A stretch of DNA of 64,000 nucleotides, taken from NCBI GenBank assembly GCA_013335095.1, contig JAAXWF010000001.1, forward strand, positions 22,797 to 86,796. Reading direction: 5' to 3'. Both the position numbers and the translations under genes were made by a program. The notes under the pieces were generated by a model. The model ran no database searches and was not told the origin of the DNA. It worked only from the letters and a program-made list of their open reading frames with translations. This DNA comes from a candidate division WWE3 bacterium (lineage in GTDB: Bacteria > Patescibacteriota > 4484-211 > GCA-002791395). How positions within the stretch are numbered: the stretch's first letter is position 1; the number at the start of each line of letters is the position of its first letter. This document shows, in pieces, positions 11,273 through 29,262 of this stretch.

Positions 11273-11279
11273 AACAAGA

Positions 11280-12153: not shown

Positions 12154-12169
12154 GTACGTATCATAACAA

Positions 12170-12212: not shown

Positions 12213-12229
12213 CGACACCAGCCAGACCC

Positions 12230-12895: not shown

Positions 12896-13048
12896 GAAAT
12901 GTCCTCCTCAAGTGATGTCGAACACACGACTCCCTATTCGGTCGATATCCCAGACGTTAAATCTGTCCTCGAATCGAGGCAGATAAGTATCTAATGTTTT
13001 AGGTACTTGGCTGCCTTGACTGACTTTTTCAAAATAATAGAGTAAAAA

Positions 13049-13083
13049 AAGGCGCGAGGATGTGAATCCCCGCGCCCGCGTAC
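13049..13083 (-). terminator. Second copy of the gcgcgagg/ccccgcgc terminator
   Basis: aaaaaaaggcgcgaggatgtgaatccccgcgc. Confidence 0.55.
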
Positions 13084-13098
13084 CCGACTTGAACCGAC

Positions 13099-13797: not shown

Positions 13798-13875
13798 AAG
13801 ACCCTCCTAGTAGTAAATACGATGCCAGCACAGCTGGCGCCATAAGTCCTCAACAGGACAACGAATTGCCCTGGC

Positions 13876-13926
13876 CCGTGGGGGCACGAAATCTGTTAAA
13901 CGTTAACCGATTACGCACCCCCACGG
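13876..13926. promoter_or_regulatory. 9-bp inverted repeat (ccgtggggg ... cccccacgg) with 33-nt spacer in the leader region of 13099-13797
   Basis: Seen directly; lies 80-130 nt upstream of the start codon at 13797. Confidence 0.3.
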
Positions 13927-14028
13927 TATCTTGTGTAAAAGTACTTTGGAGCATAAAAGCCCCTTATGTATTAAGTATATCAAATATAGGCTTATAGTAA
14001 AAGCGGCGGTTATGTAAAATATAAAAGC

Positions 14029-14586
14029 TTATTCAGCACGTAGTATTCCGATTTGGGTTTTCCCATCGCTGATTAAATCGACAAGCTCAGATCGACTCGG
14101 TGAAAAATAAAAGACTTCGCCAGGAACGATATTAGGTATGACCTGATGCCTTTTATTCATATACACAAAATTATTCAATTTGGGTTCGATAAGAGTAAAT
14201 CCACATTTTTTATAAAATGGTAATAATTCAGTCTCACAGAATCCTAACGCTGGCTTATTAGTTTTTAATAAGTACTTTTTCACACTCGACATCAACAAAC
14301 GACCCAAGCCTTTTCCCTTTTGGATAGCAATCACAGTCGAAATACATATAATCTTTTCTTTTTTACCTTGAACTACGATTGGTATCCTCCGCAGCTTGCC
14401 GAAAGCTAAAAGTCGATGATTAAACTTTGAATACAACAAAAAAAATAAAGATGTTGAAACCTCGGGATCGTTCTTATTCAACGTGGTCCGGGAGTGAAAT
14501 TCGCGTACACGATACGTATTAATAATTTCAAGCGTTGATCCTGATAAAGCACGACCTTGCATCTTTTGGAGGGTATATTGTGACAT
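14029..14586 (-). CDS. GNAT-family N-acetyltransferase (low-GC)
   Basis: Motif A QKGKGLGRLLM; start uncertain (14586 or 14604). Confidence 0.6.
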   Translation of the reverse strand: MSQYTLQKMQGRALSGSTLEIINTYRVREFHSRTTLNKNDPEVSTSLFFLLYSKFNHRLLAFGKLRRIPIVVQGKKEKIICISTVIAIQKGKGLGRLLMSSVKKYLLKTNKPALGFCETELLPFYKKCGFTLIEPKLNNFVYMNKRHQVIPNIVPGEVFYFSPSRSELVDLISDGKTQIGILRAE

Positions 14587-14607
14587 TAGTACGAATTGTA
14601 ACAAAAA

Positions 14608-14637
14608 AACCGCCGTAGGTTACCCCACGGCGGCATA
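14608..14637 (-). terminator. Hairpin ccgccgtagg/cccacggcgg with U-tract for minus gene 14656-15036
   Basis: Inverted repeat preceded by A7 on plus strand. Confidence 0.55.
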
Positions 14638-14655
14638 AGCACTCTCTCGAAAGAC

Positions 14656-15036
14656 CTACTCGGAGTACCGAGCGACCAGCTCGGCAATCGGATCAGTCCC
14701 CAACTCAGGAGGACATTTGGCCTCGTCGAAGTAAAGCTTGACCTGGCGTAGAATCGCCAGAGTAAGCCGCATCGCGGCCATTGGCATAGGTTGGCCAACG
14801 TCCTTGTTAGTAACCGTGACCATCCGCCCCAACGGGCCATTACCACGCGGATGGACGGTGACCTCAATTGACCCGTCAGACCAAATCCAGAATTCACCTT
14901 CTCGAATCGCGATGGCTAGGTGAGCCAAGGCGATAAAGTCGAACGAGATGCCGTACTGCATAGAGACTTCGCCAAACTCACGGGCCGCTTGAGCGGCATT
15001 TACGCGAGTAGTGAACATCTCCTCCACTCTAGGCAT
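14656..15036 (-). CDS. Hypothetical protein (high-GC)
   Basis: 126 aa; adjacent to the upstream gene (operon). Confidence 0.5.
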   Translation of the reverse strand: MPRVEEMFTTRVNAAQAAREFGEVSMQYGISFDFIALAHLAIAIREGEFWIWSDGSIEVTVHPRGNGPLGRMVTVTNKDVGQPMPMAAMRLTLAILRQVKLYFDEAKCPPELGTDPIAELVARYSE

Positions 15037-15048
15037 GCCATGACCTCC

Positions 15049-15399
15049 TTAGAACTTTGCGAACCACTGTCCGCTAAATCGAATCTCCGGATACCCTTCG
15101 ATCACCAGCCACTGGCGGTGTCCGACAGCAACCAGAAGCGGTTGCCAGCTCTCATCCGGCAAACACGCTGGACTGTGGTACTCGCCATCATGATGATGAC
15201 AAGCAGGCTCATCGACAGGAACCGGAATGACCTCCCTCACCCGAAATGGGCCGCACCCATAGCTCCGAAGGTGGAGCTCTTCCATCAGATTGGTATGGGA
15301 CTCGCGATCCCAAACGACCAGATCACCAGGAGCAAATAGCTCCCGCTCCATTGCCGCAGTCTGCGGGTCAGTAGAAACCGCCACAAGCGTGGGACTCAT
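15049..15399 (-). CDS. Hypothetical Cys/His-rich protein (CHHHDGEYHSPAC)
   Basis: ATG 15399 with aaggaggg RBS. Confidence 0.5.
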   Translation of the reverse strand: MSPTLVAVSTDPQTAAMERELFAPGDLVVWDRESHTNLMEELHLRSYGCGPFRVREVIPVPVDEPACHHHDGEYHSPACLPDESWQPLLVAVGHRQWLVIEGYPEIRFSGQWFAKF

Positions 15400-15630
15400 C
15401 GTACCCTCCTTGCATGGCTCAATTCCTCGCCATCCCGGCGACACAATAGGTGCGTATCATTTTAATAGATTCCCGACAATAAATCAAACACTATAGGTAA
15501 CCGCATCAAGATGGAGTCGCAGCAGCTTTATTTGTTATAAATACATATTTTTGATACAATCGGTCCGTCCTATAAGACAATTCAGGAGTCTGAAAAGCTG
15601 CTGAATTTGGCTGGTTTCAAAGGAGGGTCA

Positions 15631-17838
15631 ATGGCCGCCAAACAGGAAGTCCTAAACCTGGAGCGATTCTCAGGGGCCGCACGGAATCTACTCCGCGATG
15701 CCCTAATAATCGCCTCCGAGGCCGAACACAAGTCCTACGTCAGCTTCGAGCATCTGCTACTGGCGATTCTACAATCGACAGACGCGAATGCATACCGGCT
15801 GCTGGTGGACGCCGGATGTGAACCGGAACGACTCCGGGCAACTATCCGGGCTACGGCTGTTCGAACGCCTCAGGTTAATGGGGTGCTACTCACACACGGT
15901 GAGCTATCGCTGCCGCTTAGTACTGATGCCGCCCGCATTATCGAACGATCTCGTGAAGCTGCATCAAAATTCAGTGCAGCTAAAATCGGATCGGATCATC
16001 TGCTACTGGCGATGTTCGAGGTTGACGAAAGTCGAATCGTCCTCGTCGCAGCCGGCGTTCGCGTTGAAACGATCAAAAGCCTCGTGCTTGAGATCCACCA
16101 AAGCGGACACACCGAAAAAGGTGATGCGGCAATCATCGGCCTGGAAGAGCTTGGCACTCAAGCAGGCCAACTCGAGCCGATCATCAACGTGACTATCGTT
16201 GACGCACTCTGGACACTGTGGACTCATCGTCGCTTGCCGGGGGTCCTATTATTCGCCGAGAGTGGCGCGCCAGCTTGGGATCAAATCCTTGGTCTGGTAC
16301 GCCGACTAAGCTCAACCAAGGAGCCAAAGTTTAGCCTCATCGCGATTTCGCCCGATGCATATCTGAGTAACCCGATCCTGACGATTCAGGCGGCGATTCG
16401 GCGTGCATTGGATGAAAAAGCGATCTTGATCCTTCCCGATATTGGCCAATATGTAGGTCAAGTCGAAGACGGATTCACGACGGCAGTAAGCTTGGTTCGT
16501 GAGGCAGTGCAAAACAGCGGACTCAAGATAGTTGGGATCGCTGAACCGGCCTATCGATCAGTATTATCGAAGGATCGTCTGTTTAGTCGAATGAGGTTTA
16601 CAGACGTCGAAGCCACAACGATAGATCAAACGATCGCCTATATTACAAGGCTGATCGAGACTCTTGTTGATGGCCGAATTACGTTTGCTGAGGATACCCT
16701 CAAGCAAATTGTAGAACTCGCGGATCAGTATCTCCCGCGAGAGTTACCTGGCTGCGCGATTGACCTAACCTACGACGTAGTAGCCGCAGCCGAACTCGTC
16801 TTCGATCAGCAGCAAACTGAGTCGGTCCAGATTGATGGGAATCTCGTACTAGCTGTGCTAGAGAGGCTCACCAACCTTCCACTCGGTAAGCTGATTGGTA
16901 CAGAAAAAGAGAGACTGGCGCAGATGGAGGAAATCATCCATCGTCGCTACGTTAATCAAAAAGATGCAGTGACCGCACTGGCGCGCTCGATAAGGCGCAG
17001 TCGCACTGCATTCCGGGATAAACGACGCCCAATCGGCACGTTTCTATTTCTCGGAACAACCGGAACCGGCAAAACAGAGCTCACCAAAGCTCTGGCCGAA
17101 TTTCTGTTTGGGTCGGACGAAGCCCTGGTGGGCATCGATATGAACGAGTTTGCTGAACCACATACCGTGTCAGCACTACTTGGTTCACCCGTCGGTTATG
17201 AAGGCCACAGTCAGTCTACCCCACTGGATGTGGTTGCCCAACGACCATTTATGGTAGTCCGGTTCGATGAGATCGAGAAGGCACACGACGACGTGCTGCT
17301 TGCTCTGCTCGGACTGATGGAAAACGGATATATTACAACTCGGAGTGGACGAAGGATTAACTTCCGACACACGGTTGTGATTATGACGTCAAACGTAGGG
17401 TCGGAATACCTACGAGGAGAGGATCCAGGATCTGAAAAAGACCAAGCGCTCGCAGCGCTTAAGGATCGTTTTCGCCCGGAGTTCCTCAATAGGGTCGATC
17501 GAACGATCGTCTTTTCACCCTTTAGCAGTGACGATCTGCAGAAGGTTGCCGGGATGTTCCTGGCTTCAACGGTAAAAGAAGCCGCTGAAGAAGGGATCAA
17601 CCTGGTAGTCGCCGCCACGACCTTGCAGCAACTTGTAGCCAACATGGCTCAGGAGTGCAAACAATACGGCGCACGACCACTTCGTCGAGTCATTGATGTA
17701 CTCGAAGAGGTGATTGTCGATGGTATCGTTGCTGGCATATTCAAACCAGGACAAACCGTCGAGGTTCGATTCATGGATAATAAGTTGGAACCGGTCATCG
17801 TATCGGATACATCAGAGGAGGGAGCAGATCATGTCTGA
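15631..17838 (+). CDS. ClpC/ClpB-like AAA+ protein: two Clp_N repeats, degenerate NBD1 (Walker A replaced by ESGAPAWD; Walker B DE replaced by PD), intact NBD2 (GTTGTGKTEL, FDEIEKAH, GARPLRR)
   Basis: aaggaggg RBS; ATG 15631; motif comparison with ClpC/ClpB. Confidence 0.7.
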   Translation: MAAKQEVLNLERFSGAARNLLRDALIIASEAEHKSYVSFEHLLLAILQSTDANAYRLLVDAGCEPERLRATIRATAVRTPQVNGVLLTHGELSLPLSTDAARIIERSREAASKFSAAKIGSDHLLLAMFEVDESRIVLVAAGVRVETIKSLVLEIHQSGHTEKGDAAIIGLEELGTQAGQLEPIINVTIVDALWTLWTHRRLPGVLLFAESGAPAWDQILGLVRRLSSTKEPKFSLIAISPDAYLSNPILTIQAAIRRALDEKAILILPDIGQYVGQVEDGFTTAVSLVREAVQNSGLKIVGIAEPAYRSVLSKDRLFSRMRFTDVEATTIDQTIAYITRLIETLVDGRITFAEDTLKQIVELADQYLPRELPGCAIDLTYDVVAAAELVFDQQQTESVQIDGNLVLAVLERLTNLPLGKLIGTEKERLAQMEEIIHRRYVNQKDAVTALARSIRRSRTAFRDKRRPIGTFLFLGTTGTGKTELTKALAEFLFGSDEALVGIDMNEFAEPHTVSALLGSPVGYEGHSQSTPLDVVAQRPFMVVRFDEIEKAHDDVLLALLGLMENGYITTRSGRRINFRHTVVIMTSNVGSEYLRGEDPGSEKDQALAALKDRFRPEFLNRVDRTIVFSPFSSDDLQKVAGMFLASTVKEAAEEGINLVVAATTLQQLVANMAQECKQYGARPLRRVIDVLEEVIVDGIVAGIFKPGQTVEVRFMDNKLEPVIVSDTSEEGADHV

Positions 17839-18772
17839 CACGCCGGCGCCCGATACAACCGCTGCGGCTGAGAAACCGCAGTTGACAGCCGACGCAATCG
17901 TTACAATGATTGGTGGCTGGATTAGTCAGGGTCATTCAAGCGCCCGGATCTCACAGTACCTGGCAGTACGGGGTATCACCACAGACCTGGTCAGACAAGC
18001 CTGTGCGATGATTCGGCAGGCCGTAACCGAGCAAACCACTCAGGTAGCCGAACTGCGCACCCAGATGCAGGCTGATCTGGATACCGAAGAGTCTACGTAT
18101 ACCAGTGCTCGGGCTGTTCAGCAAGGTCTGCTGGATCAGGCTCAACAGATCATGGCACAAGCGAATGCGGTTCTCGCATTCTACGGTGCCCAGAGCGAAG
18201 CACAGCCTGCGGCGGCTGAGGGTGTGACGCAGGAAACAGCCGTAGAACCGGTGGAGGAAAAGCCCCGCTGGCCAAGTTTCCTCGGCAATATCTTCGAGGC
18301 GTTGTCGGTGGATGATGGACAAGCCGCGGTAGAAGCTGCTTCACTACAGACTGAGGCGAACACGGATATTGCCCAGCCAAGCACTCCATCGTTGGATGAT
18401 CCATATGTACCACTTCAGGTCATATTGGTCATAGCGGATCTATCGATCCAGACGACAAGGCGATGGGATAGTCTGCGGGCTTTATCGGTAGATGAAGGAC
18501 GAACGCCGGACCTAGATCTTGCCGATCTACAGACGACGTTTGAAGTTCTAAAGCCGCAGTTTGAGCGCGGCCGACTTATGGCGCAGCGCCAGGCACAGCA
18601 GAGTCAGTCGGCTATTGGAGTGTATGAAGCGCATTGGTCGCAAGTACGTGCGCAGAATGCACAAAACGTAGCTGAGCTCGACCAGAGGGCGGCGACACTC
18701 ACGAGCTTTAACCAAGCCTGTGACGCAGTGGAGACAATGATCGCCACAATTGAGGCTTCGACCCAGGCCTAA
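17831..18772 (+). CDS. Coiled-coil protein, translationally coupled to the ClpC-like gene (ATGTCTGA overlap)
   Basis: gaggaggg RBS inside the upstream gene; 313 aa, Q/A-rich heptad-like regions. Confidence 0.55.
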   Translation: MSDTPAPDTTAAAEKPQLTADAIVTMIGGWISQGHSSARISQYLAVRGITTDLVRQACAMIRQAVTEQTTQVAELRTQMQADLDTEESTYTSARAVQQGLLDQAQQIMAQANAVLAFYGAQSEAQPAAAEGVTQETAVEPVEEKPRWPSFLGNIFEALSVDDGQAAVEAASLQTEANTDIAQPSTPSLDDPYVPLQVILVIADLSIQTTRRWDSLRALSVDEGRTPDLDLADLQTTFEVLKPQFERGRLMAQRQAQQSQSAIGVYEAHWSQVRAQNAQNVAELDQRAATLTSFNQACDAVETMIATIEASTQA

Positions 18773-18792
18773 TTTTAAACATGGGTTAAAAA

Positions 18793-18835
18793 AATAACCG
18801 CCGGGTGGTACCACAATGGTACCCACCGGCGGTTT
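18793..18835. terminator. Perfect bidirectional terminator (accgccgggtggtacc acaa tggtacccaccggcggt) with A-tract and T-tract
   Basis: 16-bp perfect inverted repeat between convergent operons. Confidence 0.85.
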
Positions 18836-18863
18836 TTCATATCTCTCTAACTCTAATTACTAC

Positions 18864-19946
18864 CTATCTTTTTTCCCCTCCCTTACGAACTACCGCCGAC
18901 CGAGTACCCGAGGTACGCCGCTGGCTAGTCGGTTGTGGGACCGTTGAGGTCAGAGCCCCTCCGGCCAATCCGACATTAGCAACGTCGGCAGCGTTTACAG
19001 GTCCAGCTTCACCACCTGCCATCCACGCCGAGACGGTATTCTGGGCTCTTTCGGTTGCCAGAAGACTTTCAACAGTCCTTCCAAGCTCTTCGGCGGCTGC
19101 AGCCTGGTTCAGAGACTGAACCCCCGCAGACATCGCACTGACTTCAGCCTGAACACGTTCAAACTGTTGCGAAATAGTCAGCCGGGCCTGATCGAACTGA
19201 GCTTCGACCAGGTTGATCATCCGACCAAGCGCTTCGGGGCTGTTAACCCCCTGCTGAACGGCTTCAAGGTGACGTTGGGCAGCCGCATGAGCGGCGCTCA
19301 AACTATTGAGCAGTTCGGCGTCACCCCTGGCGTCTTCCATCTCAGCCAAGAGTCGCCGGACTTCACGTTCGGCGAGCTCTACGGCACTGTTATCGCCGAT
19401 AACCACCGCGAACAGCTGCCCCATGAAGTTCAGCCGTCGCTGGTACAACCGAACTGAAAGCTCCAACAGCTTATCGATGTCGGGCATAATCAGTTGGCGA
19501 GCTGAATCTCCCAAGCCTTCGGAGTCGAACAGTCGATCAAGTTGCTCAACCTGAGCAAAGACTTGATGTAGCTGTTCACGCCGGGCTTCAAATTCCCGCT
19601 TAGTATACGGCGGGTTTTGTGAGTACCGATATTGCTCATAAAGGCCGATCAGACGACCTTCGAGCTCATCCTGTAGCCCTTCAACTTCGCGCAGGATCTC
19701 ATCGGACTCAGTCACGTTCAGGAGGTCATACAGAGACTTCCCGACATACGCGACCAGAGTAATCGATGCCCCTGTTAGAACAGCAGGAATTGCTGCAGCA
19801 GGGGCAATGGCCAGTAGCCCTAAGCCGGATACGAAAGACAATAGTCCTCCGCCAATGGCAATCGTCAGATTCCGTTCGTCTAGAAAAGCTTCCCCAAACT
19901 CACCCAACGAATTCCGTAAGTCGTCGACCAGACGATTCCCGCTCAT
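18864..19946 (-). CDS. Membrane-anchored coiled-coil protein (two N-terminal TM helices; XpaC/TelA-like architecture, family assignment tentative)
   Basis: Hydrophobic segments at aa 27-70, then long helical region; aaaggag RBS. Confidence 0.5.
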   Translation of the reverse strand: MSGNRLVDDLRNSLGEFGEAFLDERNLTIAIGGGLLSFVSGLGLLAIAPAAAIPAVLTGASITLVAYVGKSLYDLLNVTESDEILREVEGLQDELEGRLIGLYEQYRYSQNPPYTKREFEARREQLHQVFAQVEQLDRLFDSEGLGDSARQLIMPDIDKLLELSVRLYQRRLNFMGQLFAVVIGDNSAVELAEREVRRLLAEMEDARGDAELLNSLSAAHAAAQRHLEAVQQGVNSPEALGRMINLVEAQFDQARLTISQQFERVQAEVSAMSAGVQSLNQAAAAEELGRTVESLLATERAQNTVSAWMAGGEAGPVNAADVANVGLAGGALTSTVPQPTSQRRTSGTRSAVVRKGGEKR

Positions 19947-20104
19947 CGAGCGCTCCTTTCCATCGTTACGATCGATCCAACTAGTTCTTGGTTTCTGAAC
20001 TAGGATAAAGCCAAGTATACTGCATGAATTTATCTTAATTAAGAAAATGGGCCGACTCTCAATTAAGAGAGACGGCCCAACATTACGCTATGTTAGCGTG
20101 CGAT

Positions 20105-21961
20105 TTATCGAGCCCCTGGCAGCACCAGTTGGCAGCCAAAGAATCGGTCCTGCCGCCTGATATTTTCATCAGCGGCGTTCATGTGGCTCGGATCCGACGG
20201 AATCACCGGCTTAAACGCGATCCGCTCGACCGGAACGTTCCGGTTTGAAAGCAGATCACGGATAGCCGGAATTCGAACGTCCGTCAGAAACGCCATCAAT
20301 CCTTCGGCGGTATCCCCGGGAGGCCAGGCAGTGCCGACCTCACAGAGCATCAAGACATCGACCGAAGTTGCCTTAAGGGCAGGCTTGATCGAATTATCTA
20401 CGTACGCATCGAAGCGTCCGACCGACTCTTCGACCAACGTGCCTTCGTTGGCGTTGAATTCAAAGAACTCGCGAGGGAACGTTGCCACAACGTCCTCAGG
20501 CTTGATCCCCGTCACGTCGACCGGATTGACCTGAGGTCGCCGATCGAGCGTGAACTCTTTGGCCGTAAACAACGCCCGGGCATCGGTAAGTAGCTCGGGG
20601 TGGCGCTCAGCGGTTCCCAGTACGAACTGGGGATTAACGACCGTCATCGGGTCGAACTGCTGAACTGGTTTACCACCATACCCCCACAGTTCGCTTGTGA
20701 ATGCGATCTGGGTTGCGATCACTCCGCGCTGGCCATTGGCCTGGGTGGTGCGCTGGTCATTCATCAGGTTGACGTTCGACCGGAGCGTCGCTTGCGCGAT
20801 ACCGTTCATGTAGTCGCGCATAGCTGCATCGGGAGACATTCCCGAATCAATCAAGGCCTGGATACCGGTCCAGCCATCGTGGCTCTGATCCCACTCAGAA
20901 ATCATGGTGGCGGCCCCGGCGGGGTCGCTGAGCATGAAGTTCAGGGCATCGAACCAGGCGTCATGAAACGCCTGCACCAGAGCCGGGTTTTCCCCGACAA
21001 TCTGGTTCGAGAAGATCACGCCATCGATAAGGCTTGGAAGGTTTTCGCTTCCGATGACCTTATAGCCGATATCAACATCCTGGCCATTTCCGTCGTAGAT
21101 GAAAACGGTTTTGCCGTCATCGCGAAGGTTAATGACCGGGATCCAGCCGACCATCACGTTGGTCTGGCCCGCCTGATAGGCTTCCAGAGCCTGTTCAGCC
21201 CGGTTGATATCAGGAAGCATCATGCGAACATTCGGATCCGCGGCATTCTCGCGACCAGCGTAATAAAACGTGATCGTTAGAAGCTCACTCACCGAATTCG
21301 CACCTGCCGCAATCGGCTTGCCAATGATCCCCTGGAGCGTTTGATTTGGCTCCCGGGAAACCATGAAATCCGATCCGCGGCTCATGGAGATGATCAACGT
21401 GTTGACGCCGTACGCCCCTTGCAGGGCAAAGGTGTCGACTGTGGTTAGACCACAGTTGAACTCTCCCGTACGCAGGTAATCAGCCTGCTGATTCTCGTCA
21501 AAGTCATTCTGGTCCAGATTGGGGCCAGAAGCCATGGGCACCAGCTCAAGCTCGAAGTTGTGCTTCGCAGCGAATTGCTGAGCCATGAGGATGGTTGGGT
21601 AGTAGCTCGGGTAGTTAGCCACGAAGCATTTCAGTGTACCCAACGAGCCACTTGCTGACGTTGTTCCGGCTTGATTCACTGGGGTTGCCGCTGCAGCAGC
21701 CGTTGGCTGAATTTGCGAGCTCCCTGCCGTTGCGTTATTCGGATTTACCGTCGGCGCGCCCCCCCCGAAGGGAACGACTTGCGTGACGGAAACCGAAGTA
21801 GGTGCGGTTGATGCACTGCTATTGCCCCTGATCAGCAAGGTACGAATCCCCAAACCGATCACGGTGAGCAGCATCAGGACCGCAAGGATAGCAATACCGA
21901 CTCGAGTTGGACTAAGACGCCGACGTCGGCGCAATGAACTACCATCGGTTGGTGAACTCAC
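20105..21961 (-). CDS. Membrane-anchored protein with NMT1/SsuA-like periplasmic substrate-binding domain and C-terminal extension of unknown function
   Basis: GTG start 21961 with AGGAGG RBS; Arg-rich N-terminus plus TM; SBP-like region YPSYYPT...GWIPVINLRDDG. Confidence 0.5.
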   Translation of the reverse strand: MSSPTDGSSLRRRRRLSPTRVGIAILAVLMLLTVIGLGIRTLLIRGNSSASTAPTSVSVTQVVPFGGGAPTVNPNNATAGSSQIQPTAAAAATPVNQAGTTSASGSLGTLKCFVANYPSYYPTILMAQQFAAKHNFELELVPMASGPNLDQNDFDENQQADYLRTGEFNCGLTTVDTFALQGAYGVNTLIISMSRGSDFMVSREPNQTLQGIIGKPIAAGANSVSELLTITFYYAGRENAADPNVRMMLPDINRAEQALEAYQAGQTNVMVGWIPVINLRDDGKTVFIYDGNGQDVDIGYKVIGSENLPSLIDGVIFSNQIVGENPALVQAFHDAWFDALNFMLSDPAGAATMISEWDQSHDGWTGIQALIDSGMSPDAAMRDYMNGIAQATLRSNVNLMNDQRTTQANGQRGVIATQIAFTSELWGYGGKPVQQFDPMTVVNPQFVLGTAERHPELLTDARALFTAKEFTLDRRPQVNPVDVTGIKPEDVVATFPREFFEFNANEGTLVEESVGRFDAYVDNSIKPALKATSVDVLMLCEVGTAWPPGDTAEGLMAFLTDVRIPAIRDLLSNRNVPVERIAFKPVIPSDPSHMNAADENIRRQDRFFGCQLVLPGAR

Positions 21962-22026
21962 AGAGCACCTCCTAAAAGTAAGAGGGACTGCCGCCCATTT
22001 GCGGCAGCCCACTTTCCGATTTAGAA

Positions 22027-22788
22027 CTACTTCTCCGGCGTCAGCCGGGTCGTAGCAGCACCATCAGCAGTAGCAGGTCCAGCCTGGCCGGCTTTCTTCT
22101 TGGCGATGAGTGCCGTAAGCTCCGGACTCATCTCACCCAGAGAGAGCGCGCCACCAGGGGCGAGGCCTGCTTCCATAACCGCGCTCGACATGCGAAGCCG
22201 GGCATCAGCGTCACGCCGCCCGTCATCGGCACGATCCTGAAGCTCTTCGAGCTCCCAAAAGTCGTTGCCCTGACCAATGCCGGCCATCTGTTCCTGCAGT
22301 GAAGCAAGACCAGCTTTAGCCTCATTCGCAGCGATGCGGATCTTGTAGCCGTTGGCTTGAGCTGCCTTAAGACGAGCTGCGTTGATATTACGCAACATAA
22401 TCGCCTTAATGTTGGCTTGAGAGGCAACAGACTCGAGGTCTCTCAGAAGCCCCTCAACGATTGGCTGATGCATCTGGATCTCCTGATCCAGGGCCATTGC
22501 TGTTTCTAGGTCTTCATTTTCGACCGCTTTCTCGCGCCGTGCCTTGAGCTGATCGAGGTACTGAACCTGACGGGCCACATCCTCGGCGAAAGCCTCCTGG
22601 CTTTTGCTCAGCTCAACGCCAGCCCAATAAGCCGAATCCTCGGCTCCCTTGGCCTTGTCGCGTACGCTCTCAAGGAGGTCATCGGTGCTTTCATTGCGAA
22701 GCCACCGCCCAACCTCCCGCCAAAATCGATTCCAAAGCTCGCCGATCACAAATCCCGGACCATTCCGACGAGGAGAACGATTAGACAT
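22027..22788 (-). CDS. PspA/IM30 (Vipp1/LiaH) family protein
   Basis: Coiled-coil with C-terminal PspA-like FWELEELQDRADD segment; ATG 22788 with ggagga RBS. Confidence 0.5.
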   Translation of the reverse strand: MSNRSPRRNGPGFVIGELWNRFWREVGRWLRNESTDDLLESVRDKAKGAEDSAYWAGVELSKSQEAFAEDVARQVQYLDQLKARREKAVENEDLETAMALDQEIQMHQPIVEGLLRDLESVASQANIKAIMLRNINAARLKAAQANGYKIRIAANEAKAGLASLQEQMAGIGQGNDFWELEELQDRADDGRRDADARLRMSSAVMEAGLAPGGALSLGEMSPELTALIAKKKAGQAGPATADGAATTRLTPEK

Positions 22789-23096
22789 ATGAGTATCCTC
22801 CGTAGAACTACTACACCTGATACAGGCTCCGATGCGAATCCACCGAAAGGTCAATCCATTAGCTGGGATTGCTCCCCTTTCCGCTAAACGTGAAATACAC
22901 GCTTACACATTCAGTAAGCGATTTACTTTTACCATATTTTGCTCCTAACGTCAAAACATAACAAAACACTATAAGACGAGATTGCTTATAAATATTCGTT
23001 TTCATCCTTAAATACTTATCAAGCTTTACTAAAAGGCTTATACTTATAAACGCCAATACATCGGCATCGTGGAACGCACGACTATAGGAGGCGTCA

Positions 23097-24521
23097 ATGA
23101 CCCCATCAAGTGGCACGTACCGTGAACATCTTGAGAATCACGGTATCTCGGTACGAACGGATCCAGTCTTGCCGTTTTTTCATTACGATAGAAACGGTAA
23201 GCTCGTCATCAGAGTATCAGGCTACTCCGACCTGGATCTGTTTGAGGTGTATGCAAGGTACGGTGCGGTTCAGCTGAACCTGCCCGATCTAGCAACACAA
23301 AGAGTACATCAGAGATGGGCCATTAATGGAGCGGCAGCAAAGGCTGCCCATTATCCCGAGGCAGTTCAAAGCGCCTATGCGACAAAAGCCAACGACTGGT
23401 ATCCAGTCGTTTCCCGAGTCGTTCGCGCCGGGTGTCATCAAGAGACCTCATCGCCATCGGGGGTCGCAGCAGCTCAGATACTTTGGGAAAGGGGCGAAAT
23501 TAGCCCAGAGCAGATGGTGATTTGTAATGGATACATTACAGCACCATATGCGGGCGCAATTCACGATTTGCGACATGCCGGATTTGCGAATACTATTCCG
23601 GTAATCGACAAAGAAAGCGTGCTGGCGCTCTTCCGACGCGACCATACGTGGCGATTCGGGATCCGGCAACGGGCTCATTTGCCCGCTCAAACAGACACCA
23701 AACCACACAAGGGTGTGTCTCGGTTTGGAATGGATTATGAAGAGCTCAAACGAGTCGCGATGATGATCCAGCGCAACCCCGGATGGGAGTTGGTGTTATA
23801 CCACTTCCACCTAGGTAGCCAGATCATCGATGAGGATAATTTCCTCGGCGGGTTACTGTCTGCAGCGACTAACTACTGTCGACTCAGGCAACAGGTCCCA
23901 ACCCTTCAATATCTTGATATTGGAGGAGGCGCACCAGTCCAATACGGCCTAACCCCACTCACGATTAATCTAGAGCTATTGCTCACTAGATTCTTGGTGA
24001 GCTTAAAGGACCTGTGTACACACTTTGACGTTCCCTGTCCGACGGTCATCACAGAATGGGGACGGTTCACGGTAGCGCCAAGCGAGCTACGGATGATGGA
24101 AATCCGGGCTCAATATGAACCTGGATTTATTCAAGTCCATGACACAATTATGGGCTCATTGGCGGATAATTGGGCAATCAAGCAACCGTTCCCAGTACTT
24201 TCTCTGGCGGGGCTTGACCACCCGACGACACGAGGCAAGATCGTTGGGCTAACCTGCGACGAAGATGATTGTCTATTCACGGAAGACGACAATCATGTGA
24301 CCATCGCTCGTCCAGATCGATTTCGGACTCCCGGGTCCGAGGTTTTGGTAGTTGCCAATACCGGCGCATACCAGTCAAACCTCGGGAATCTGGAGCACTG
24401 CATGCAGTTGCAGGAGGCGGTAATTGCCGCGTATCTCCATCGCGGGCAGTGGGTGTTTGAGACGGTCCGTCCCAGACAAATGGCCAAAGACATGCTCAAG
24501 CTGTTTGGCTGGCCTGTATAG
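23097..24521 (+). CDS. PLP-dependent decarboxylase, fold type III (Orn/DAP/Arg decarboxylase family; arginine-decarboxylase-like)
   Basis: YATKAN PLP-lysine motif, HFHLGSQ, DIGGG motifs; taggagg RBS. Confidence 0.6.
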   Translation: MTPSSGTYREHLENHGISVRTDPVLPFFHYDRNGKLVIRVSGYSDLDLFEVYARYGAVQLNLPDLATQRVHQRWAINGAAAKAAHYPEAVQSAYATKANDWYPVVSRVVRAGCHQETSSPSGVAAAQILWERGEISPEQMVICNGYITAPYAGAIHDLRHAGFANTIPVIDKESVLALFRRDHTWRFGIRQRAHLPAQTDTKPHKGVSRFGMDYEELKRVAMMIQRNPGWELVLYHFHLGSQIIDEDNFLGGLLSAATNYCRLRQQVPTLQYLDIGGGAPVQYGLTPLTINLELLLTRFLVSLKDLCTHFDVPCPTVITEWGRFTVAPSELRMMEIRAQYEPGFIQVHDTIMGSLADNWAIKQPFPVLSLAGLDHPTTRGKIVGLTCDEDDCLFTEDDNHVTIARPDRFRTPGSEVLVVANTGAYQSNLGNLEHCMQLQEAVIAAYLHRGQWVFETVRPRQMAKDMLKLFGWPV

Positions 24522-24542
24522 CCGAGTAGGTCACTGTTAGTC

Positions 24543-24577
24543 GGGGCGAGCGGAAACGTTCGCCCTTTTTTTATCAC
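24543..24577 (+). terminator. Hairpin gggcgagcg gaaa cgttcgccc followed by T8
   Basis: Inverted repeat plus T-tract. Confidence 0.7.
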
Positions 24578-24675
24578 CCCGCAGCACCAAACTATAGGAC
24601 TCCATGGTATATAATTACACTTAAGTTTCCGATAAATAAGACTAGGAGCCAGTCATAGCTGGTACAGGAGGTCGG

Positions 24676-25227
24676 ATGAAGCGCTGCTTCGCGTGCTCGG
24701 GCAAAAGCCCAGTCGATGCGCAGTACTGCATCAACTGCTCGGCACCATATCCGATAGCAAGCACGGGCACCACGAAACACCTTGGAAAACAAGACGACCT
24801 TGCCCGCACCATAGCCGTAACACACATAGCAGCTATGATGGGGTTAATCCAGTTCACCATGATCATCATCGGCGACATGCTGATGTACAACATCATAGGA
24901 CTGGAATACTGGAAGTCTCTTTCGTTGTTCGAGTTTAGCCTGTTGTGGACATGTCGAGGTATGCTCGATACCGGTATCAGCCTATTGGTACTCATCGGGT
25001 TGCTTCGCTTGACAACAAAAATGGTAATAACAGGTTCGCCTCGCCAGATAGCCAAAAAACGAATCATCGTCACGGCTATCTTAGCGCTGGTGATGTCAGT
25101 AGTTGGGCTCATGGTAGCTCCTGAGTTAAACTACAACCTGCAGGACAAAACCACAATATTGGCCATCAGCCTCATAATGGCCGGAGCGGTTGGTACACTG
25201 ATAGGTAGAGCAAGTAAGACTGCATAA
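24676..25227 (+). CDS. Membrane protein with N-terminal zinc ribbon (CxxC...CxxC) and four TM helices
   Basis: caggagg RBS; Cys pairs; hydrophobic segments. Confidence 0.55.
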   Translation: MKRCFACSGKSPVDAQYCINCSAPYPIASTGTTKHLGKQDDLARTIAVTHIAAMMGLIQFTMIIIGDMLMYNIIGLEYWKSLSLFEFSLLWTCRGMLDTGISLLVLIGLLRLTTKMVITGSPRQIAKKRIIVTAILALVMSVVGLMVAPELNYNLQDKTTILAISLIMAGAVGTLIGRASKTA

Positions 25228-25231
25228 ATAG

Positions 25232-25268
25232 CTGCCGGGGCTTAGCACAACTAGTCCCCGGCTTTTTT
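25232..25268 (+). terminator. Hairpin gccgggg...ccccggc followed by T6
   Basis: Inverted repeat plus T-tract. Confidence 0.7.
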
Positions 25269-25346
25269 ATTTCTTAATTTCATAAAAGTTGATACTAGAG
25301 CCTATAATATTAATACGGTGATTTAAGGATCGTAGAGGAGGCAAGT

Positions 25347-26000
25347 ATGCCATTGCAGACCGATTGGAGTAATGTCGGAACGGCGAATCTACGCCGTAAG
25401 GTGGCCAAGCTGATTAAGCGTGCAGAGATTGACGTTGACCAGCGCTATCTCGCCCTCCACGCCATGGGTCTACCCCAGGGACAGATCCCAAACGTGGAAA
25501 AGCTGATTGACGCAGCCACCCGGGAGCAGCTCGAAGCTGCCGCAACGATCTTGTCGTACCTGATTGGTCCAGCCAAAGAAGCGGGCAAAGGTACAACGAT
25601 TGAGCAAGACGCTCGACGATGGTGGGAAGAGGCCCTTGCGGCCAACGCCCACAATGGAATCCCACAGGAATGGGTTAATAGGATCGACCTACTGACTCAG
25701 CTCGAAAATCTGGGTTATGGTGTAGACCAGATCAACCCGGTCGTACGACTGGGCAAAGTTCAGGTGTACCGACTGATCGTCAATCAGTTCAAGCTTGCGG
25801 CAGATCGGTACAACGAGAACCTAGGCACCCTGGTCGAAGTATCTAGGCGGGAGTGGGAAGCATTTTGCAACGCGAAGCAGGAGGATGAGGTCCTGGTAGC
25901 GATGCGCGCATGCTTCACCTGGATACAGGATCGTAGCCAGCCGATGCCGTCTCCTCGGCAGATGCTGCTGTTCTACGGTATGCTCGGCAGCACAATCTAA
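25347..26000 (+). CDS. Hypothetical protein (high-GC)
   Basis: agaggagg RBS; 217 aa. Confidence 0.5.
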   Translation: MPLQTDWSNVGTANLRRKVAKLIKRAEIDVDQRYLALHAMGLPQGQIPNVEKLIDAATREQLEAAATILSYLIGPAKEAGKGTTIEQDARRWWEEALAANAHNGIPQEWVNRIDLLTQLENLGYGVDQINPVVRLGKVQVYRLIVNQFKLAADRYNENLGTLVEVSRREWEAFCNAKQEDEVLVAMRACFTWIQDRSQPMPSPRQMLLFYGMLGSTI

Positions 26001-26017
26001 GGTTTGCTCGAAAATGG

Positions 26018-26052
26018 TGCCGGGGATCCACATGGATCTCCGGTTTTTTTAT
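26018..26052 (+). terminator. Hairpin ccggggatcca...tggatctccgg followed by T7
   Basis: Inverted repeat plus T-tract. Confidence 0.65.
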
Positions 26053-26124
26053 TTACAACCTCCATAAAACTATCTAAAAATGACTCACATTAATGATTAT
26101 TGATATGAATATGATGCCTAAAAA

Positions 26125-26152
26125 AAAGGCAGCGAGTTTCCCCGCTGCCCGA
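26125..26152 (-). terminator. Hairpin ggcagcg...cgctgcc with U8 on minus strand, 3' of 26175-26786
   Basis: Inverted repeat preceded by A8 on plus strand. Confidence 0.6.
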
Positions 26153-26174
26153 TCGTAGCACCTCCTGAAAATTT

Positions 26175-26786
26175 TTAGTCGAACGCCATCAGTTCGACCC
26201 AGTGATTGTCACGAACTGCGGCCCAATCAAGGGTCCCCGCAATTGAGTGACACTCCTGACTCACCCGCCACGGATCTCCCGCGGCAAGCAGGTCAAGATA
26301 AGCCGAGCGGTAATCAGCCGCCCGAGCAACGCTGCCGACTCGTTCGGCCTTGCCGGGATGAGTTCGCTCAGGTCGGACACGAAAGCAGACCAGCTCCCCC
26401 TTCTTAAGGGTTGGCTGAACCCAGTCGTGCCCATTCCGATAGAACTCTATCGGCGTAAAACCTTCAGAAAATCGGACGTTCCACACGTCCGATCCATGAA
26501 AGTAGTACGACCGTCCAACGGCACTGTTGCCGTCGATACCCAGCCCCTTGATAAATCCGAAGCCTTTGCTGGCATCATAGAATGTGACTTCGCCGAGGAA
26601 AAGCACGTGATGCTTTTCTGGCTGATCGTCAGCAAACCAGATTGGCCCAAAGCTTCGAGGATTTTTGGCCGCCTCCACCACATCCGCCCGACAGATCGGG
26701 CAGAATCCATTATGGCGAACAACATTCGCCTCCTGCGTATCGTCCTCGATGGTGTGGGCGCACGGGAAAAAAGTCACCGTAGCCAT
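26175..26786 (-). CDS. Fusion protein: N-terminal Cys/His zinc-finger-like motif, central cold-shock domain (KGFGFI), C-terminal domain of unknown function
   Basis: CSD signature GEVTFYDASKGFGFIKG...YYFHGSDV; aaggaggg RBS. Confidence 0.6.
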   Translation of the reverse strand: MATVTFFPCAHTIEDDTQEANVVRHNGFCPICRADVVEAAKNPRSFGPIWFADDQPEKHHVLFLGEVTFYDASKGFGFIKGLGIDGNSAVGRSYYFHGSDVWNVRFSEGFTPIEFYRNGHDWVQPTLKKGELVCFRVRPERTHPGKAERVGSVARAADYRSAYLDLLAAGDPWRVSQECHSIAGTLDWAAVRDNHWVELMAFD

Positions 26787-26955
26787 GGGAGTCCCTCCTT
26801 GGTGTAGAGCAGCGCTCTACTATATTAGGTGCCAGGTCCAAAACAGTACCACCATAATAGCCTATAGTAGTACTGCCTGTCAAATTTTTAAAAATAGCCG
26901 TTACATTGGCGTCTCATTTAAAAAAATATTATAGTAGTAAGGATTAGTACGTTCG

Positions 26956-29262
26956 ATGATCGAAAAGACCTCTAAACAATTAATAACCTTCATGACGATT
27001 GTGAGTTCATTCATGATCGTTGCATTGTCCCTACTATTTATTGATAGTTACGGTTCTAAAACAGCTTCAGATAATCGAAAATCAGCCAGTGCTGCTCAAA
27101 ATACTGGTAATTATGTACTCTATACCCAAACAGACATTGACAATATCAAGGCTCAAATCAATTCAAATACCACCATTAAAAATGCTTATAACGACCTCAT
27201 CACTAAGGCAAATGAAGATTTAAATGGCTCATTCCATTTCTACGGTGGAACTTCACATACCGCAAATAGCCAAGCATCACGAGCCGCGCTTAGACTAGCT
27301 CTGGCATACAGGCTTACGGGAGATACGCAGTATGCATCGAAAGCAAAAAGCGTGGTTATGACCGTTACGAGTGCATCAACTATGGTAACTGATGATCCAT
27401 CAATACCCGACAAAGCAACCGCATCGGATAGTCTTTTGTTATATGGGGTCGATACTCCAGGCATGATTCTTGCAGCTGATTTTCTTGATACTTATCCTGG
27501 GTTCAATTCAAGTGAAAAGCAGTCGGTAAAAGATTGGTTTAACGCGACAGCGCGAAGCGCTATGACTCTTCATTACAACACCAAAGTACAAGCTGAAGCC
27601 GGACGTGAATATATGGATCTTGGGTTTACGAACTATAACAGTTGGAGAGTTGTTTTAATTATGACTGCGGGAATATATACCAAAGATTCTGAATTATTTA
27701 ATTTTGCAGTTAGTTATTTTAAAAACTCCCTCATGGAAGAAATGTTTAATTCTTTAGGAGTAGCCGTATGGGAAGTACGAAGAATCACGACAAAAACCTA
27801 TTACTACTCTCACTATACAATTTCGGGAATGCTGCAATTAATTATACTTGCGCGAAAACAAGGAGTCGATCTTGCCAGCTATAAAAATTCTGCCGGGGCG
27901 AATCTTAAAACAGTTCTGGATTATTATTACCAGTTTGCGAACGGTACGCCGTGGCCTTATGAAGGAATAGAAGGGTCTAATCCTCCAAAATATTCTGATG
28001 TATGGGAAAACTTTGAAGCAGGTTATTTTATGTATAAAGACTCAAGATATAACACGCTCATAAATTCCTATCGACCGACATACTGGAGGTCTGGCATCAT
28101 GACTCCCAACACGTTATTTTTCTTAAGTAGTGATTTCAATAATCCTTCAAATCCGATAACGCCAAACCCGACCACAACAGGTGCGCCTACAGCAACACCC
28201 ATACCAGTACCGACCGGTCGAATAAATCCATCGCCACGATTGCCGATCTCGCCATATAATTCGACCGGAACGCCGTGGGCAATACCCGGAACAATTGAGG
28301 CGGAAAGTTTCGATAATGGTGGTGTGGGGATTGCCTACTACGACACTGATTCAGACAATATTGGCGGAGCATATCGATCGACAAGCATTGATATTGATCC
28401 CTACAGTAACGGTAATTACAGCGTAGCATGGATTAGGCCAACAGAGTGGCTACGGTATTCGGTGTTTGTCCAAACACGCGGGATATATGACATTAAACCT
28501 CGAGTCGCCTTCAAAGGACCGGCAGGAAATTTTGATATTGAGATTGATGGCAAAGTCGTCGGTAGTTTTACCATACCTGATACAAAAGAATTTAGCGCAT
28601 TTACCGATATAACCGTAGGAAATATTCAGCTAGAAACCGGATATCATGTACTTCGAATTATTGCAGTCAGTGCAAATGAGGGTAGTTACGATGGATTGAT
28701 GGGAGATATTGATAAATTCACCTTCGTCTTAACTAAAAACCTTTCTACGTCACCGAATACCCAATCGCCCGCTGCGGTACCAGGAAAAATCGAGGCGGAA
28801 AACTTTGACCGAGGTGGCGAAGGGATCGCATATCATGACACCAAGACTGGCAACGAACTTGTGATTCAAAATAAAGGCGGGATTGATTACCGACCAGGAG
28901 AAGGTGTCGATATTGGGAAAAACGCAAATGGCGCAACCTATGTCGGCTGGATTGAAAATACCGAATGGTTAGTCTACACCATTAACGTAACTGAAGATGG
29001 CTATTACCACCTATCGGCACAAGCTGGATTTAATGGCGCTGGTGGAAGCTTCGATCTTGAGATTGATGGTAAGACTCAAGGGCACTTTACTATTCGAGAT
29101 TTGGGTGCATGGGATATTTACACCACCATACCTGCATGGCCTCCGTATATCAGGTTAACCAAAGGTACACATACCCTTCGGCTCATCGCCAAACAACGAC
29201 CTGGTGTATCCACCTATCAAAATCTTCTCGGTGATATCGATTATTTCGAAATTTCAAAGTAA
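26956..29262 (+). CDS. Secreted alginate-lyase/heparinase-II/III-like (alpha/alpha)6 toroid domain protein with two C-terminal CBM6-like modules
   Basis: Signal peptide; AYRLTGDTQYASKA motif shared with 32473-34503 and 48996-50897; two repeats IEAE(S/N)FD.GG.GIAY.DT...W..Y. Confidence 0.5.
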   Translation: MIEKTSKQLITFMTIVSSFMIVALSLLFIDSYGSKTASDNRKSASAAQNTGNYVLYTQTDIDNIKAQINSNTTIKNAYNDLITKANEDLNGSFHFYGGTSHTANSQASRAALRLALAYRLTGDTQYASKAKSVVMTVTSASTMVTDDPSIPDKATASDSLLLYGVDTPGMILAADFLDTYPGFNSSEKQSVKDWFNATARSAMTLHYNTKVQAEAGREYMDLGFTNYNSWRVVLIMTAGIYTKDSELFNFAVSYFKNSLMEEMFNSLGVAVWEVRRITTKTYYYSHYTISGMLQLIILARKQGVDLASYKNSAGANLKTVLDYYYQFANGTPWPYEGIEGSNPPKYSDVWENFEAGYFMYKDSRYNTLINSYRPTYWRSGIMTPNTLFFLSSDFNNPSNPITPNPTTTGAPTATPIPVPTGRINPSPRLPISPYNSTGTPWAIPGTIEAESFDNGGVGIAYYDTDSDNIGGAYRSTSIDIDPYSNGNYSVAWIRPTEWLRYSVFVQTRGIYDIKPRVAFKGPAGNFDIEIDGKVVGSFTIPDTKEFSAFTDITVGNIQLETGYHVLRIIAVSANEGSYDGLMGDIDKFTFVLTKNLSTSPNTQSPAAVPGKIEAENFDRGGEGIAYHDTKTGNELVIQNKGGIDYRPGEGVDIGKNANGATYVGWIENTEWLVYTINVTEDGYYHLSAQAGFNGAGGSFDLEIDGKTQGHFTIRDLGAWDIYTTIPAWPPYIRLTKGTHTLRLIAKQRPGVSTYQNLLGDIDYFEISK

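Follow-up and report, generated by a model that had tools for sequence, protein, structure and literature searches.

Introduction

Why does a 12-kb block of genes rich in guanine and cytosine (GC) lie in the GC-poor genome of a member of the candidate phyla radiation (CPR), and what do these genes encode? The block is located in a 64,000-nucleotide (nt) stretch of the genome of a candidate division WWE3 bacterium (GenBank assembly GCA_013335095.1, contig JAAXWF010000001.1, positions 22,797 to 86,796 of the forward strand). This whole stretch is referred to here as the window, and all coordinates are positions within it. The contig measures 536 kb, and exact protein matches carry the locus tags HGA91_* (NTV30387-NTV30442 in the window). 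Exact-sequence look-ups of seven low-GC and three high-GC proteins found no relative above 90% identity besides alternative gene calls of the same locus. An initial annotation, made from the sequence alone, described the block as one island of almost entirely unassignable genes, either an old acquisition adapted to its host or a block derived from a distinct replicon. The explanation favored here, with slightly better than even confidence, is horizontal acquisition: the block would combine a membrane-remodelling gene module with orphan gene cassettes, acquired from one or more higher-GC sources that use Shine-Dalgarno (SD) sequences, and recently enough for its composition not to have equilibrated with that of the host.

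Composition and borders of the block

Two features define the block and its left border:

14656..26800, no strand assigned: whole high-GC block, 11 genes, 53.2% GC
14609..14634, minus strand: intrinsic terminator of a 126-amino-acid (aa) gene, 11-bp stem with 8 GC pairs followed by T7

The compositional block is real. Its GC content of 53.2% compares with 42.3% in the remainder of the window and 40.8% over 27-61 kb. In 1-kb windows the block was found to vary between 49 and 57% GC, never reaching 60%, and the background between 36 and 46%; the initial values of about 60% for the block and 30-35% outside it were therefore exaggerated, although the extent of the block had been placed correctly. 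Both borders are sharp. On the left, 200-nt windows have 31-38% GC within the GNAT gene (14029-14604) and 55-57% beyond approximately 14600, where the terminator at 14609-14634 marks the border and abuts the start of this low-GC gene, exactly the abrupt junction that had been described. On the right, the GC content falls from 55% to 34-36% between 26800 and 27000.

Codon usage and dinucleotides also set the block apart. The GC fraction at third codon positions (GC3) is 0.52-0.65 in the block genes and about 0.33 in the background, and the relative synonymous codon usage is shifted. The dinucleotide signature distance between the block and the low-GC background is 80, whereas background pieces of the same size lie on average 26, and at most 36, from one another. 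Chance cannot account for a contrast of this size. The sliding-window and codon-usage check that had been recommended for the locus is thus positive in GC, GC3, synonymous codons and dinucleotides. Overall, the first description holds for the existence of the block and the sharpness of its borders, but not for its GC content or, as described below, for the expression signals said to be shared with its surroundings.

Two gene populations with different expression signals

The block is not a single island, as first proposed, but the longest run (11 genes) of a high-GC class of about 25 genes dispersed over the window. Per-gene GC3 was found to be bimodal, with 46-47 genes at 0.23-0.45 (mostly about 0.33) and 25 genes at 0.46-0.78, the latter accounting for 32% of the coding bases of the window. 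The high-GC genes show the normal coding pattern, in which the GC fraction at first codon positions (GC1) exceeds that at second positions (GC2). Synonymous codon frequencies differ strongly between the high- and low-GC genes: CTG, 0.31 and 0.09; TTA, 0.06 and 0.33; ATC, 0.57 and 0.25; AAG, 0.58 and 0.27, respectively. The smaller high-GC patches listed in the initial annotation were confirmed gene by gene, with GC fractions of 0.48-0.61, at 317-2955, 6180-7455, 12230-13797 and 29873-30109, and further at 34599-35126, 46921-47301, 52087-52461 and 53188-53595.

The two classes also differ in the signals that surround their genes. A strong SD sequence, defined as AGGAGG, GGAGG or AGGAG located 3-11 nt 5' of the start codon, precedes 15 of the 25 genes of the high-GC class, among them 10 of the 11 block genes, and only 3 of the 46 low-GC genes (p = 1.7e-6). 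For 19 of the 25 high-GC genes, compared with 4 of the 46 low-GC genes, a strong GC-rich hairpin with a T-run lies no more than 75 nt downstream (p = 1e-8). A TATAAT-like -10 box ending 5-9 nt before the start was observed for 13 of the 46 low-GC genes and none of the 25 high-GC genes (p = 0.003), whereas the other 5-nt distance bins contain 1-7 cases each among the low-GC genes, mostly 2-4. This spacing suggests that many of the low-GC genes are expressed from leaderless messenger RNAs, and the resident genome and the high-GC class appear to differ in their mode of translation initiation. Low-GC starts that exemplify the SD-poor class with a -10 box include those at 31023, 35174, 35893, 45765, 48896, 48996, 52021 and 3394.

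The high-GC genes are self-contained cassettes with leader, SD sequence and terminator, placed among genes with other signals. The initial annotation had held that the block uses the same AGGAGG ribosome-binding sites and hairpin-plus-U terminators as the background, a statement contradicted by the counts above, and had concluded that the block is adapted to host expression signals. Because the cassettes carry signals of their own, this conclusion loses its basis: the block keeps SD starts and strong terminators, and its low-GC neighbors mostly lack SD sequences. Moreover, since the expression signals differ by class, they constitute evidence of a separate history that is independent of composition, and strengthen the case for a foreign origin.

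Some of the terminators recur within the window. The 20-nt terminator hairpin CCCTCGTGGAAACACGGGGG occurs in three exact copies, with none expected by chance, and a fourth copy differs by two mutually compensating changes that convert a G-C pair into A-T:

1792-1811, 6138-6157, 7059-7078 and 46872-46891, all minus strand: copies of the 20-nt hairpin, each just downstream of a different, unrelated high-GC gene

In addition, the high-GC orphan genes 12230-12895 and 13099-13797 are tandem paralogues with 29% identity, and the terminators that follow them (12168-12198 and 13045-13075) are 94% identical, indicating that an orphan cassette was duplicated in place. Two more tandem high-GC pairs were identified (6180-6980 with 7544-7828, and 29330-29758 with 29873-30109). 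The idea that the small high-GC orphans form a single paralogous family was rejected, as an all-against-all BLAST comparison returned these three tandem pairs only.

A conserved six-gene module within the block

Direct Pfam or NCBIfam matches were obtained for only two of the 11 block genes, in agreement with the description of the block as almost entirely unassignable. However, six of the genes, spanning 9 kb (15631-24521), form a conserved and interpretable envelope module:

15631..17838, plus strand: Clp/Hsp100-type AAA+ ATPase, 735 aa, with Clp_N, AAA_2 and ClpB_D2-small domains
17831..18772, plus strand: helical Ala/Gln-rich protein, 313 aa, its start overlapping the ATPase stop by 8 nt
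18864..19946, minus strand: coiled-coil protein, 360 aa, the long coiled coil preceded by two hydrophobic helices at the N-terminus
20105..21961, minus strand: membrane-anchored protein, 618 aa (PBPb-OmpA), combining a solute-binding domain of the NMT1/SsuA/TauA type with an OmpA-like peptidoglycan-binding domain at the C-terminus
22027..22788, minus strand: PspA/Vipp1-like (ESCRT-III superfamily) candidate, 253 aa, from its predicted fold
22789..23096, no strand assigned: 308-nt spacer, 40% GC, between the divergent PspA-like operon and decarboxylase gene
23097..24521, plus strand: fold-type-III pyridoxal phosphate-dependent decarboxylase, 474 aa (Pfam Orn_Arg_deC_N, 1e-16)
24543..24566, plus strand: intrinsic terminator after the decarboxylase gene, marking the end of the conserved module

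The module is syntenic in two or more further uncultured lineages, and four additional ones have parts of it. L003, a 21-kb contig that encodes one of the two near relatives of the ATPase, contains all six genes in the same order and orientation as in the window, at 30-41% identity (ATPase 41%, 282-aa protein 30%, 338-aa protein 33%, 623-aa protein 41%, 259-aa protein 32%, decarboxylase-like protein 38%). Parts of the module are found at L004, L005/L006, L065, L067 and L068. The divergent pairing of the PspA-like operon and the decarboxylase gene is kept in L003, L005/L006, L067 and L068, and the 313-aa gene is conserved beside the ATPase gene in L003 and L004.

The ATPase belongs to a very small family. 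Among 5.8 billion proteins, its only near relatives are two proteins (P0014 and P0015) with 41% identity, followed by ordinary ClpC proteins at about 30%. Its first AAA+ domain (D1) is degenerate, the Walker A sequence GEPGVGKT being replaced by AESGAPAW and the Walker B sequence ILFIDE by ILILPD (ILILPDIG), and this dead D1 is common to all three members of the family. The D2 ring is intact, and both the middle (M) domain and the ClpP-docking LGF loop are absent. With these features, and with scores far below the NCBIfam equivalog cut-offs (ClpB, 347 versus 1232; ClpV, 226 versus 885), the protein falls outside ClpB, ClpC and ClpV. Assignment as the ClpV of a type VI secretion system (T6SS) was dropped on the same ClpV score and the absence of Tss genes. 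The 8-nt overlap with the ATPase gene suggests translational coupling of the 313-aa protein to the ATPase. Neither Pfam nor the PDB yielded a match for this protein, and a PDB profile search with its family returned coiled-coil noise only.

The three proteins encoded on the minus strand were characterized mainly through their families and models. The 618-aa protein itself scores below the Pfam thresholds, but can be aligned end to end with a family of 21 members, 18 of which match both NMT1 and OmpA. A profile of the 21-sequence alignment detected TauA/SsuA and OmpA-like structures in the PDB, and superseded an earlier three-sequence alignment whose only PDB matches were spurious ones to the MS2 coat protein. 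The 253-aa protein was modelled with AlphaFold from five sequences (mean predicted local distance difference test score, pLDDT, of 62; 74-90 in the hairpin). In the model, an N-terminal helix precedes a long helical hairpin, after which three more helices follow; the helices cover residues 12-32, 35-90, 94-121, 124-169, 178-207 and 222-235. Vipp1 and PspA account for all of the top 13 matches in a Foldseek search of the PDB, with CHMP2A/3, Asgard ESCRT-IIIB and CdvB2 next. The family is very small, with four other clusters at 50% identity (five in total) among 1.84 billion representative proteins, and scans of JGI metagenomes with the PspA-like and PBPb-OmpA alignments found nothing. The 360-aa gene occupies the position of the "TM+Snf7" gene of published operons (described below), and a PDB profile search with its family returned only coiled-coil noise.

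Several results count against the membrane-remodelling part of the interpretation. The 253-aa protein is a PspA/Vipp1-like candidate on the strength of a model with a pLDDT of 62, and its top 13 Foldseek matches have probabilities of 0.80-1.0 but weak E-values (0.009-0.2) and TM-scores of 0.25-0.39. It gave no match to PspA_IM30 or Snf7 in a Pfam scan to E <= 5, none in a PDB profile search, and a negative hhalign comparison with E. coli PspA (probability 0.2). The single-sequence model of the 360-aa protein (pLDDT 44) is unusable, its assignment to Snf7 is that of a candidate, and its hhalign comparison with the PspA-like family was also negative.

For the decarboxylase, the nearest solved structure is the biosynthetic arginine decarboxylase SpeA (3n2o, E = 1e-24), and motifs of 3n2o are kept, namely the Lys in "YatKaN", HFHLGSQ, DIGGG and TCDEDD. 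However, its SpeA score is below the cut-off (130 bits versus 369) and its length of 474 aa is short of the approximately 630-660 aa of SpeA, which makes the substrate uncertain.

Origin of the high-GC genes

Where did the high-GC genes come from? The other copies of the module have GC contents of 43-50% and GC3 values of 0.34-0.50, near those of their own flanks, whereas the copy in the window has 52-57% GC and a GC3 of 0.52-0.65. The window copy is thus the GC outlier, the pattern of an un-ameliorated and fairly recent arrival from a higher-GC carrier. The initial proposal of a foreign acquisition is supported in this respect, as the distinct GC3, codon usage and dinucleotides make a foreign source likely, but its corollary of adaptation to host signals is not.

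Other observations count against horizontal acquisition. The approximately 15 separate high-GC patches would need many insertion events, and the spacers within the block have only 38-42% GC. No integrase domain was found in the block by Pfam, NCBIfam and PHROG scans, no tRNA gene or Rfam match, and no flanking or att-like repeats around the block. Searches of IMG/VR, INPHARED and PLSDB returned no phage, viral or plasmid match, and neither the protein-collection nor the genome scans identified a donor for the block. The nearest relatives of the module genes are low-GC metagenomic contigs with 30-43% identity, and the GC-richest gene of the window (13099-13797) has no homologue but itself among 5.8 billion proteins. 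The SD-type starts of the module persist across lineages even where its GC content matches that of the host, and the identical hairpins behind unrelated high-GC genes could reflect long residence and evolution in situ.

These last two observations lead to the alternative of a native, long-resident class of flexible-genome genes whose GC content is kept high locally, the module being inherited vertically from an ancestor shared with the L003 and L005 lineages. Candidate local processes are GC-biased gene conversion in frequently recombining accessory genes, and selection acting on expression or on messenger RNA structure. In L003 and L005, too, SD sequences precede the module genes, while the flanking genes are mostly without them and no strong GC contrast exists. 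Some of those flanking genes have a -10 box adjoining the start. A native class would also agree with the shared hairpins, with the tandem duplication of high-GC paralogues together with their terminators, with the absence of mobility genes and insertion scars, and with the difficulty of attributing homologue-less orphans to a donor. GC1 is high in every copy of the module, reflecting amino-acid content. However, a single genome should have a single mutation bias, yet GC3 differs by 0.2-0.4 between the two classes and the dinucleotide distance exceeds the null threefold. Orthologous modules elsewhere are close to the GC content of their own hosts, and no known process yields such sharp borders gene by gene. 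A native origin is regarded as less likely than horizontal acquisition, which remains preferred, but as a serious competitor to it.

A more specific alternative is that the genes came directly from Chloroflexota, conceivably from the physical host of the episymbiont. Two peptide patterns were used to seed a scan of 185,579 genomes representing species, which recovered 54 genome loci with relatives of the PBPb-OmpA gene, at 25-29% identity over nearly the full length. Apart from three contigs, all assigned to a single "Roseobacter" bin, these loci belong to metagenome-assembled genomes labelled Chloroflexota; Patescibacteria contributed none. A decarboxylase-like gene lies directly upstream on the same strand in about half of them (approximately 26; L009-L062). 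The resulting cluster, which appears to be uncharacterized, encodes a SpeA-like decarboxylase, a membrane NMT1+OmpA protein and a protein with SBP_bac_11 and VWA domains; in Candidatus Leptofilum (L016, 7312-13050), a gene for an MscS-like channel precedes these three. The high GC content of the loci (47-73%), the frequent linkage of the two genes and the presence of Thermoflexus among the next-best ClpC matches agree with such a donor.

The relationship is distant, however. The Chloroflexota relatives are only 25-33% identical and lack four of the six module genes, which also counts against horizontal acquisition in general. Profile models of the PspA-like, 360-aa and 313-aa families match nothing in these loci, and a tblastn search with the ATPase gave a partial, generic Clp match in one locus only; without the ATPase, PspA-like and coiled-coil genes, the Chloroflexota share merely the two-gene core. 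The core itself differs in arrangement, as the homologous and linked decarboxylase-like and PBPb-OmpA genes are adjacent on the same strand in Chloroflexota and divergent in the window, and the Chloroflexota operon includes the solute-binding protein with a VWA domain instead of the missing genes. Since the genome scan was seeded with two patterns, restriction to Chloroflexota is not an exhaustive result. CPR bacteria and Chloroflexota may be sister groups, in which case shared ancestry would explain the distribution equally well. The comparison with other phyla that had been suggested for the island proteins thus gave a divided answer: two genes have their only phylum-level relatives in high-GC Chloroflexota, but at just 25-33% identity. 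Direct transfer from Chloroflexota is regarded as improbable.

Comparably improbable is a wider scheme of two co-resident gene populations with separate expression signals, one leaderless, low-GC and resident, the other SD-led, terminator-bounded, high-GC and largely devoid of homologues, amounting to about one third of the window. In this scheme the high-GC genes would be a standing pool derived from an unsampled higher-GC partner, conceivably a Chloroflexota-like host, and the core module would be an ESCRT-III-like system with a Clp-derived analogue of Vps4. If this were true, such islands could identify the hosts of CPR bacteria.

An integrated prophage, plasmid or integrative element is very unlikely. 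The many orphan genes are compatible with one, as are weak PHROG matches of the ATPase to a phage "ATP-dependent protease" family, but these matches represent generic Clp similarity. Domain and PHROG scans found no capsid, terminase, relaxase or replication genes in the block, in addition to the missing integrase, tRNA gene, flanking repeats and database matches mentioned above, and given these negatives the suggestion of a distinct replicon-derived block is unsupported. A phage or defence origin was rejected as well, since PHROGs and PADLOC scans, which covered every block gene but that of the decarboxylase (10 of 11), gave generic AAA+ matches only.

Finally, a chimera of reads from high-GC and low-GC organisms, arising in assembly or binning, deserves hardly any credence: the source is a metagenome-assembled genome and one contig boundary of an independent assembly (Logan contigs of run SRR11449211) falls inside the block, but the two Logan contigs that match the window (661-15065 and 15044-60116) contain one GC border each, composition switches more than 15 times across the 64 kb, each time in a spacer between genes whose promoters and terminators are intact, and the core module lies among low-GC genes in related genomes too. 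Mis-assembly, which had been named as a ground for refuting the observation, is thus unlikely. The break between the Logan contigs, at 15044-15065, is an overlap of approximately 22 nt between the 126-aa and 131-aa genes and coincides with neither GC border.

How does the block compare with transferred islands in related bacteria? In Patescibacteria, horizontally transferred genes have been reported to make up as much as 13% of genome length, mostly from unsampled or patescibacterial donors (PMC12455944). The block resembles these islands as a set of accessory genes of atypical composition in a CPR genome. It differs in that the contrast is toward higher GC and is coupled to a switch of start and terminator signals, in that the high-GC class reaches approximately 32% of coding sequence in the window, and in the absence of mobility genes. 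As an example of how heavily genes may flow into a reduced CPR genome, the window is clean and can be checked. As the imported class is recognizable by its start and terminator signals besides GC, these provide a simple way to partition such genomes and to trace the sources of their genes, and possibly the host.

Proposed function and relation to known systems

A related operon type has been described in bacteria, in which PspA genes occur beside a gene for a protein that combines an inactive N-terminal AAA+ domain with a second AAA+ domain (Ravi et al., 2024, mSystems; PMC11237479). The order of the published operons is PspA -> PBPB+OmpA -> ... -> TM+Snf7 -> inactive-AAA+AAA, where TM denotes a transmembrane segment, and examples include OGG56892.1 (Candidatus Handelsmanbacteria) and AKJ06548.1 (Archangium). 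The same study read this arrangement as ATP-dependent membrane remodelling comparable to Snf7/Vps4, and found PspA to be repeatedly coupled to polyamine genes.

The window shares with these PspA-AAA+ operons (PMC11237479) the order of a PspA-like protein, a PBPb and OmpA protein with a transmembrane or signal segment, and a transmembrane coiled-coil protein. On the minus strand, the PspA-like gene (22788 to 22027) is followed directly by the PBPb-OmpA gene (21961 to 20105), as in the published operon type. The adjacent ATPase with two AAA+ domains and an inactive N-terminal one, the extra helical proteins and the link to a polyamine gene are also common to both. However, the ATPase of the window is of the Clp/Hsp100 type, whereas that of the published operons is a classical AAA protein. 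Longer versions of the published operons include genes for an ABC ATPase and permease, and domain scans found none in the block. An integral, divergently transcribed gene for a SpeA-like decarboxylase and a 313-aa partner probably coupled in translation to the ATPase also set the window module apart. Furthermore, its PspA-like and coiled-coil proteins are too divergent for Pfam, and its PspA-like family is very rare. The module is a variant of this known but uncharacterized operon type. It adds a rare form, with a Clp-type ATPase whose first ring is dead and a polyamine-type decarboxylase, to a group hitherto known from comparative genomics only. Transferred islands in Patescibacteria and the PspA-AAA+ operon type are already known; of note here are the division of the genes into two classes by two sets of signals and the rare Clp-type module.

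The core module probably repairs or remodels the cell membrane. From the domain content and the published operon type, the following mechanism may be proposed. The PspA/Vipp1-like protein would polymerize on the inner face of the membrane, where the two-helix membrane coiled-coil protein could anchor or nucleate the polymer. Attachment of the system to the cell wall would fall to the membrane-anchored solute-binding/OmpA-like protein, which might also couple it to a small-molecule signal. The Clp-type ATPase would then remodel or disassemble the polymer by means of its substrate-binding N domain, in the manner of Vps4 acting on ESCRT-III; the 313-aa protein, probably coupled to it in translation, may mediate this step. 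The divergent SpeA-like decarboxylase would supply agmatine or a polyamine.

Two well-known ATPase systems offer points of comparison. Vps4 is a single-ring classical AAA+ ATPase with an MIT domain that disassembles ESCRT-III. The window resembles ESCRT-III/Vps4, and the archaeal CdvB/CdvC pair, in that a protein predicted to have a helical hairpin and to form polymers is encoded beside a putative dedicated AAA+ protein. By this analogy, the position of the ATPase gene beside the PspA-like gene suggests ATP-driven remodelling of a membrane-bound polymer. The ATPase differs from Vps4 in its two-ring Clp type with a dead D1 and a Clp_N domain, rather than a single ring with an MIT domain. In the case of ClpV, the N domain recognizes a polymer, the sheath, for disassembly without ClpP. 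The ATPase of the window shares the Hsp100-like architecture of ClpV (TssH), ClpB and ClpC and, like ClpV, has no ClpP loop; on the other hand, its dead D1, the missing M domain, the scores below the cut-offs and the absence of T6SS genes nearby set it apart from all three. The compact module could be used to examine whether bacterial ESCRT-III-like proteins have dedicated partners for ATP-driven disassembly.

Flanking orphan genes

The remaining five genes of the block lie outside the module:

14656..15036, minus strand: 126-aa orphan gene, AGGAGG SD sequence 7 nt before the ATG
15049..15444, minus strand: 131-aa orphan gene, separated by 12 nt from the 126-aa gene downstream of it
24676..25227, plus strand: 183-aa orphan protein with an N-terminal zinc ribbon and a hydrophobic remainder
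25347..26000, plus strand: 217-aa orphan gene with its own SD sequence and terminator
26175..26786, minus strand: orphan gene marking the right border, 203 aa, with a Cys motif at the N-terminus and a stretch of weak cold-shock-like character

These five genes are orphan cassettes. They have no counterpart in any other module locus, and no domain, phage or defence match was found for them except for the one marginal cold-shock-like stretch. The 126-aa and 131-aa genes are probably contained in one transcript, and the hydrophobic remainder of the 183-aa protein is probably membrane-spanning.

Other features of the window

Some further features of the high-GC genes were observed. The motif CYATAGTT occurs 12 times in the window, compared with 3.5 expected (for example, at 7031-7038, 24590-24597, 47376-47383 and 53666-53673), and CCTATAG or CCATAG is located directly 5' of a -35-like TTGACT or TTGAAT box at several high-GC genes, for instance ahead of 46921-47301 and 53188-53595; CYATAGTT may thus be an element associated with promoters. 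Pfam matches were obtained for no more than three high-GC genes of the window. One of these, 53188-53595 (60% GC), has DUF7919 as its only match (E = 6e-17).

In the low-GC background, two RRM-domain proteins (5154-5564 and 11280-11591) are 70% identical over 82 residues, and the gene of the latter has a perfect AGGAGG SD sequence, as very few low-GC genes do. The background also encodes three alginate-lyase proteins, one with CBM6/CBM35 and one with PA14, several proteins with a common dockerin-like module, and one protein with a weak cohesin match. These polysaccharide-related genes (9518-11182, 26956-29262, 32473-34503, 41003-41863, 44224-45057 and 48996-50897) hint at a cellulosome-like surface system for polysaccharide degradation in this CPR genome.

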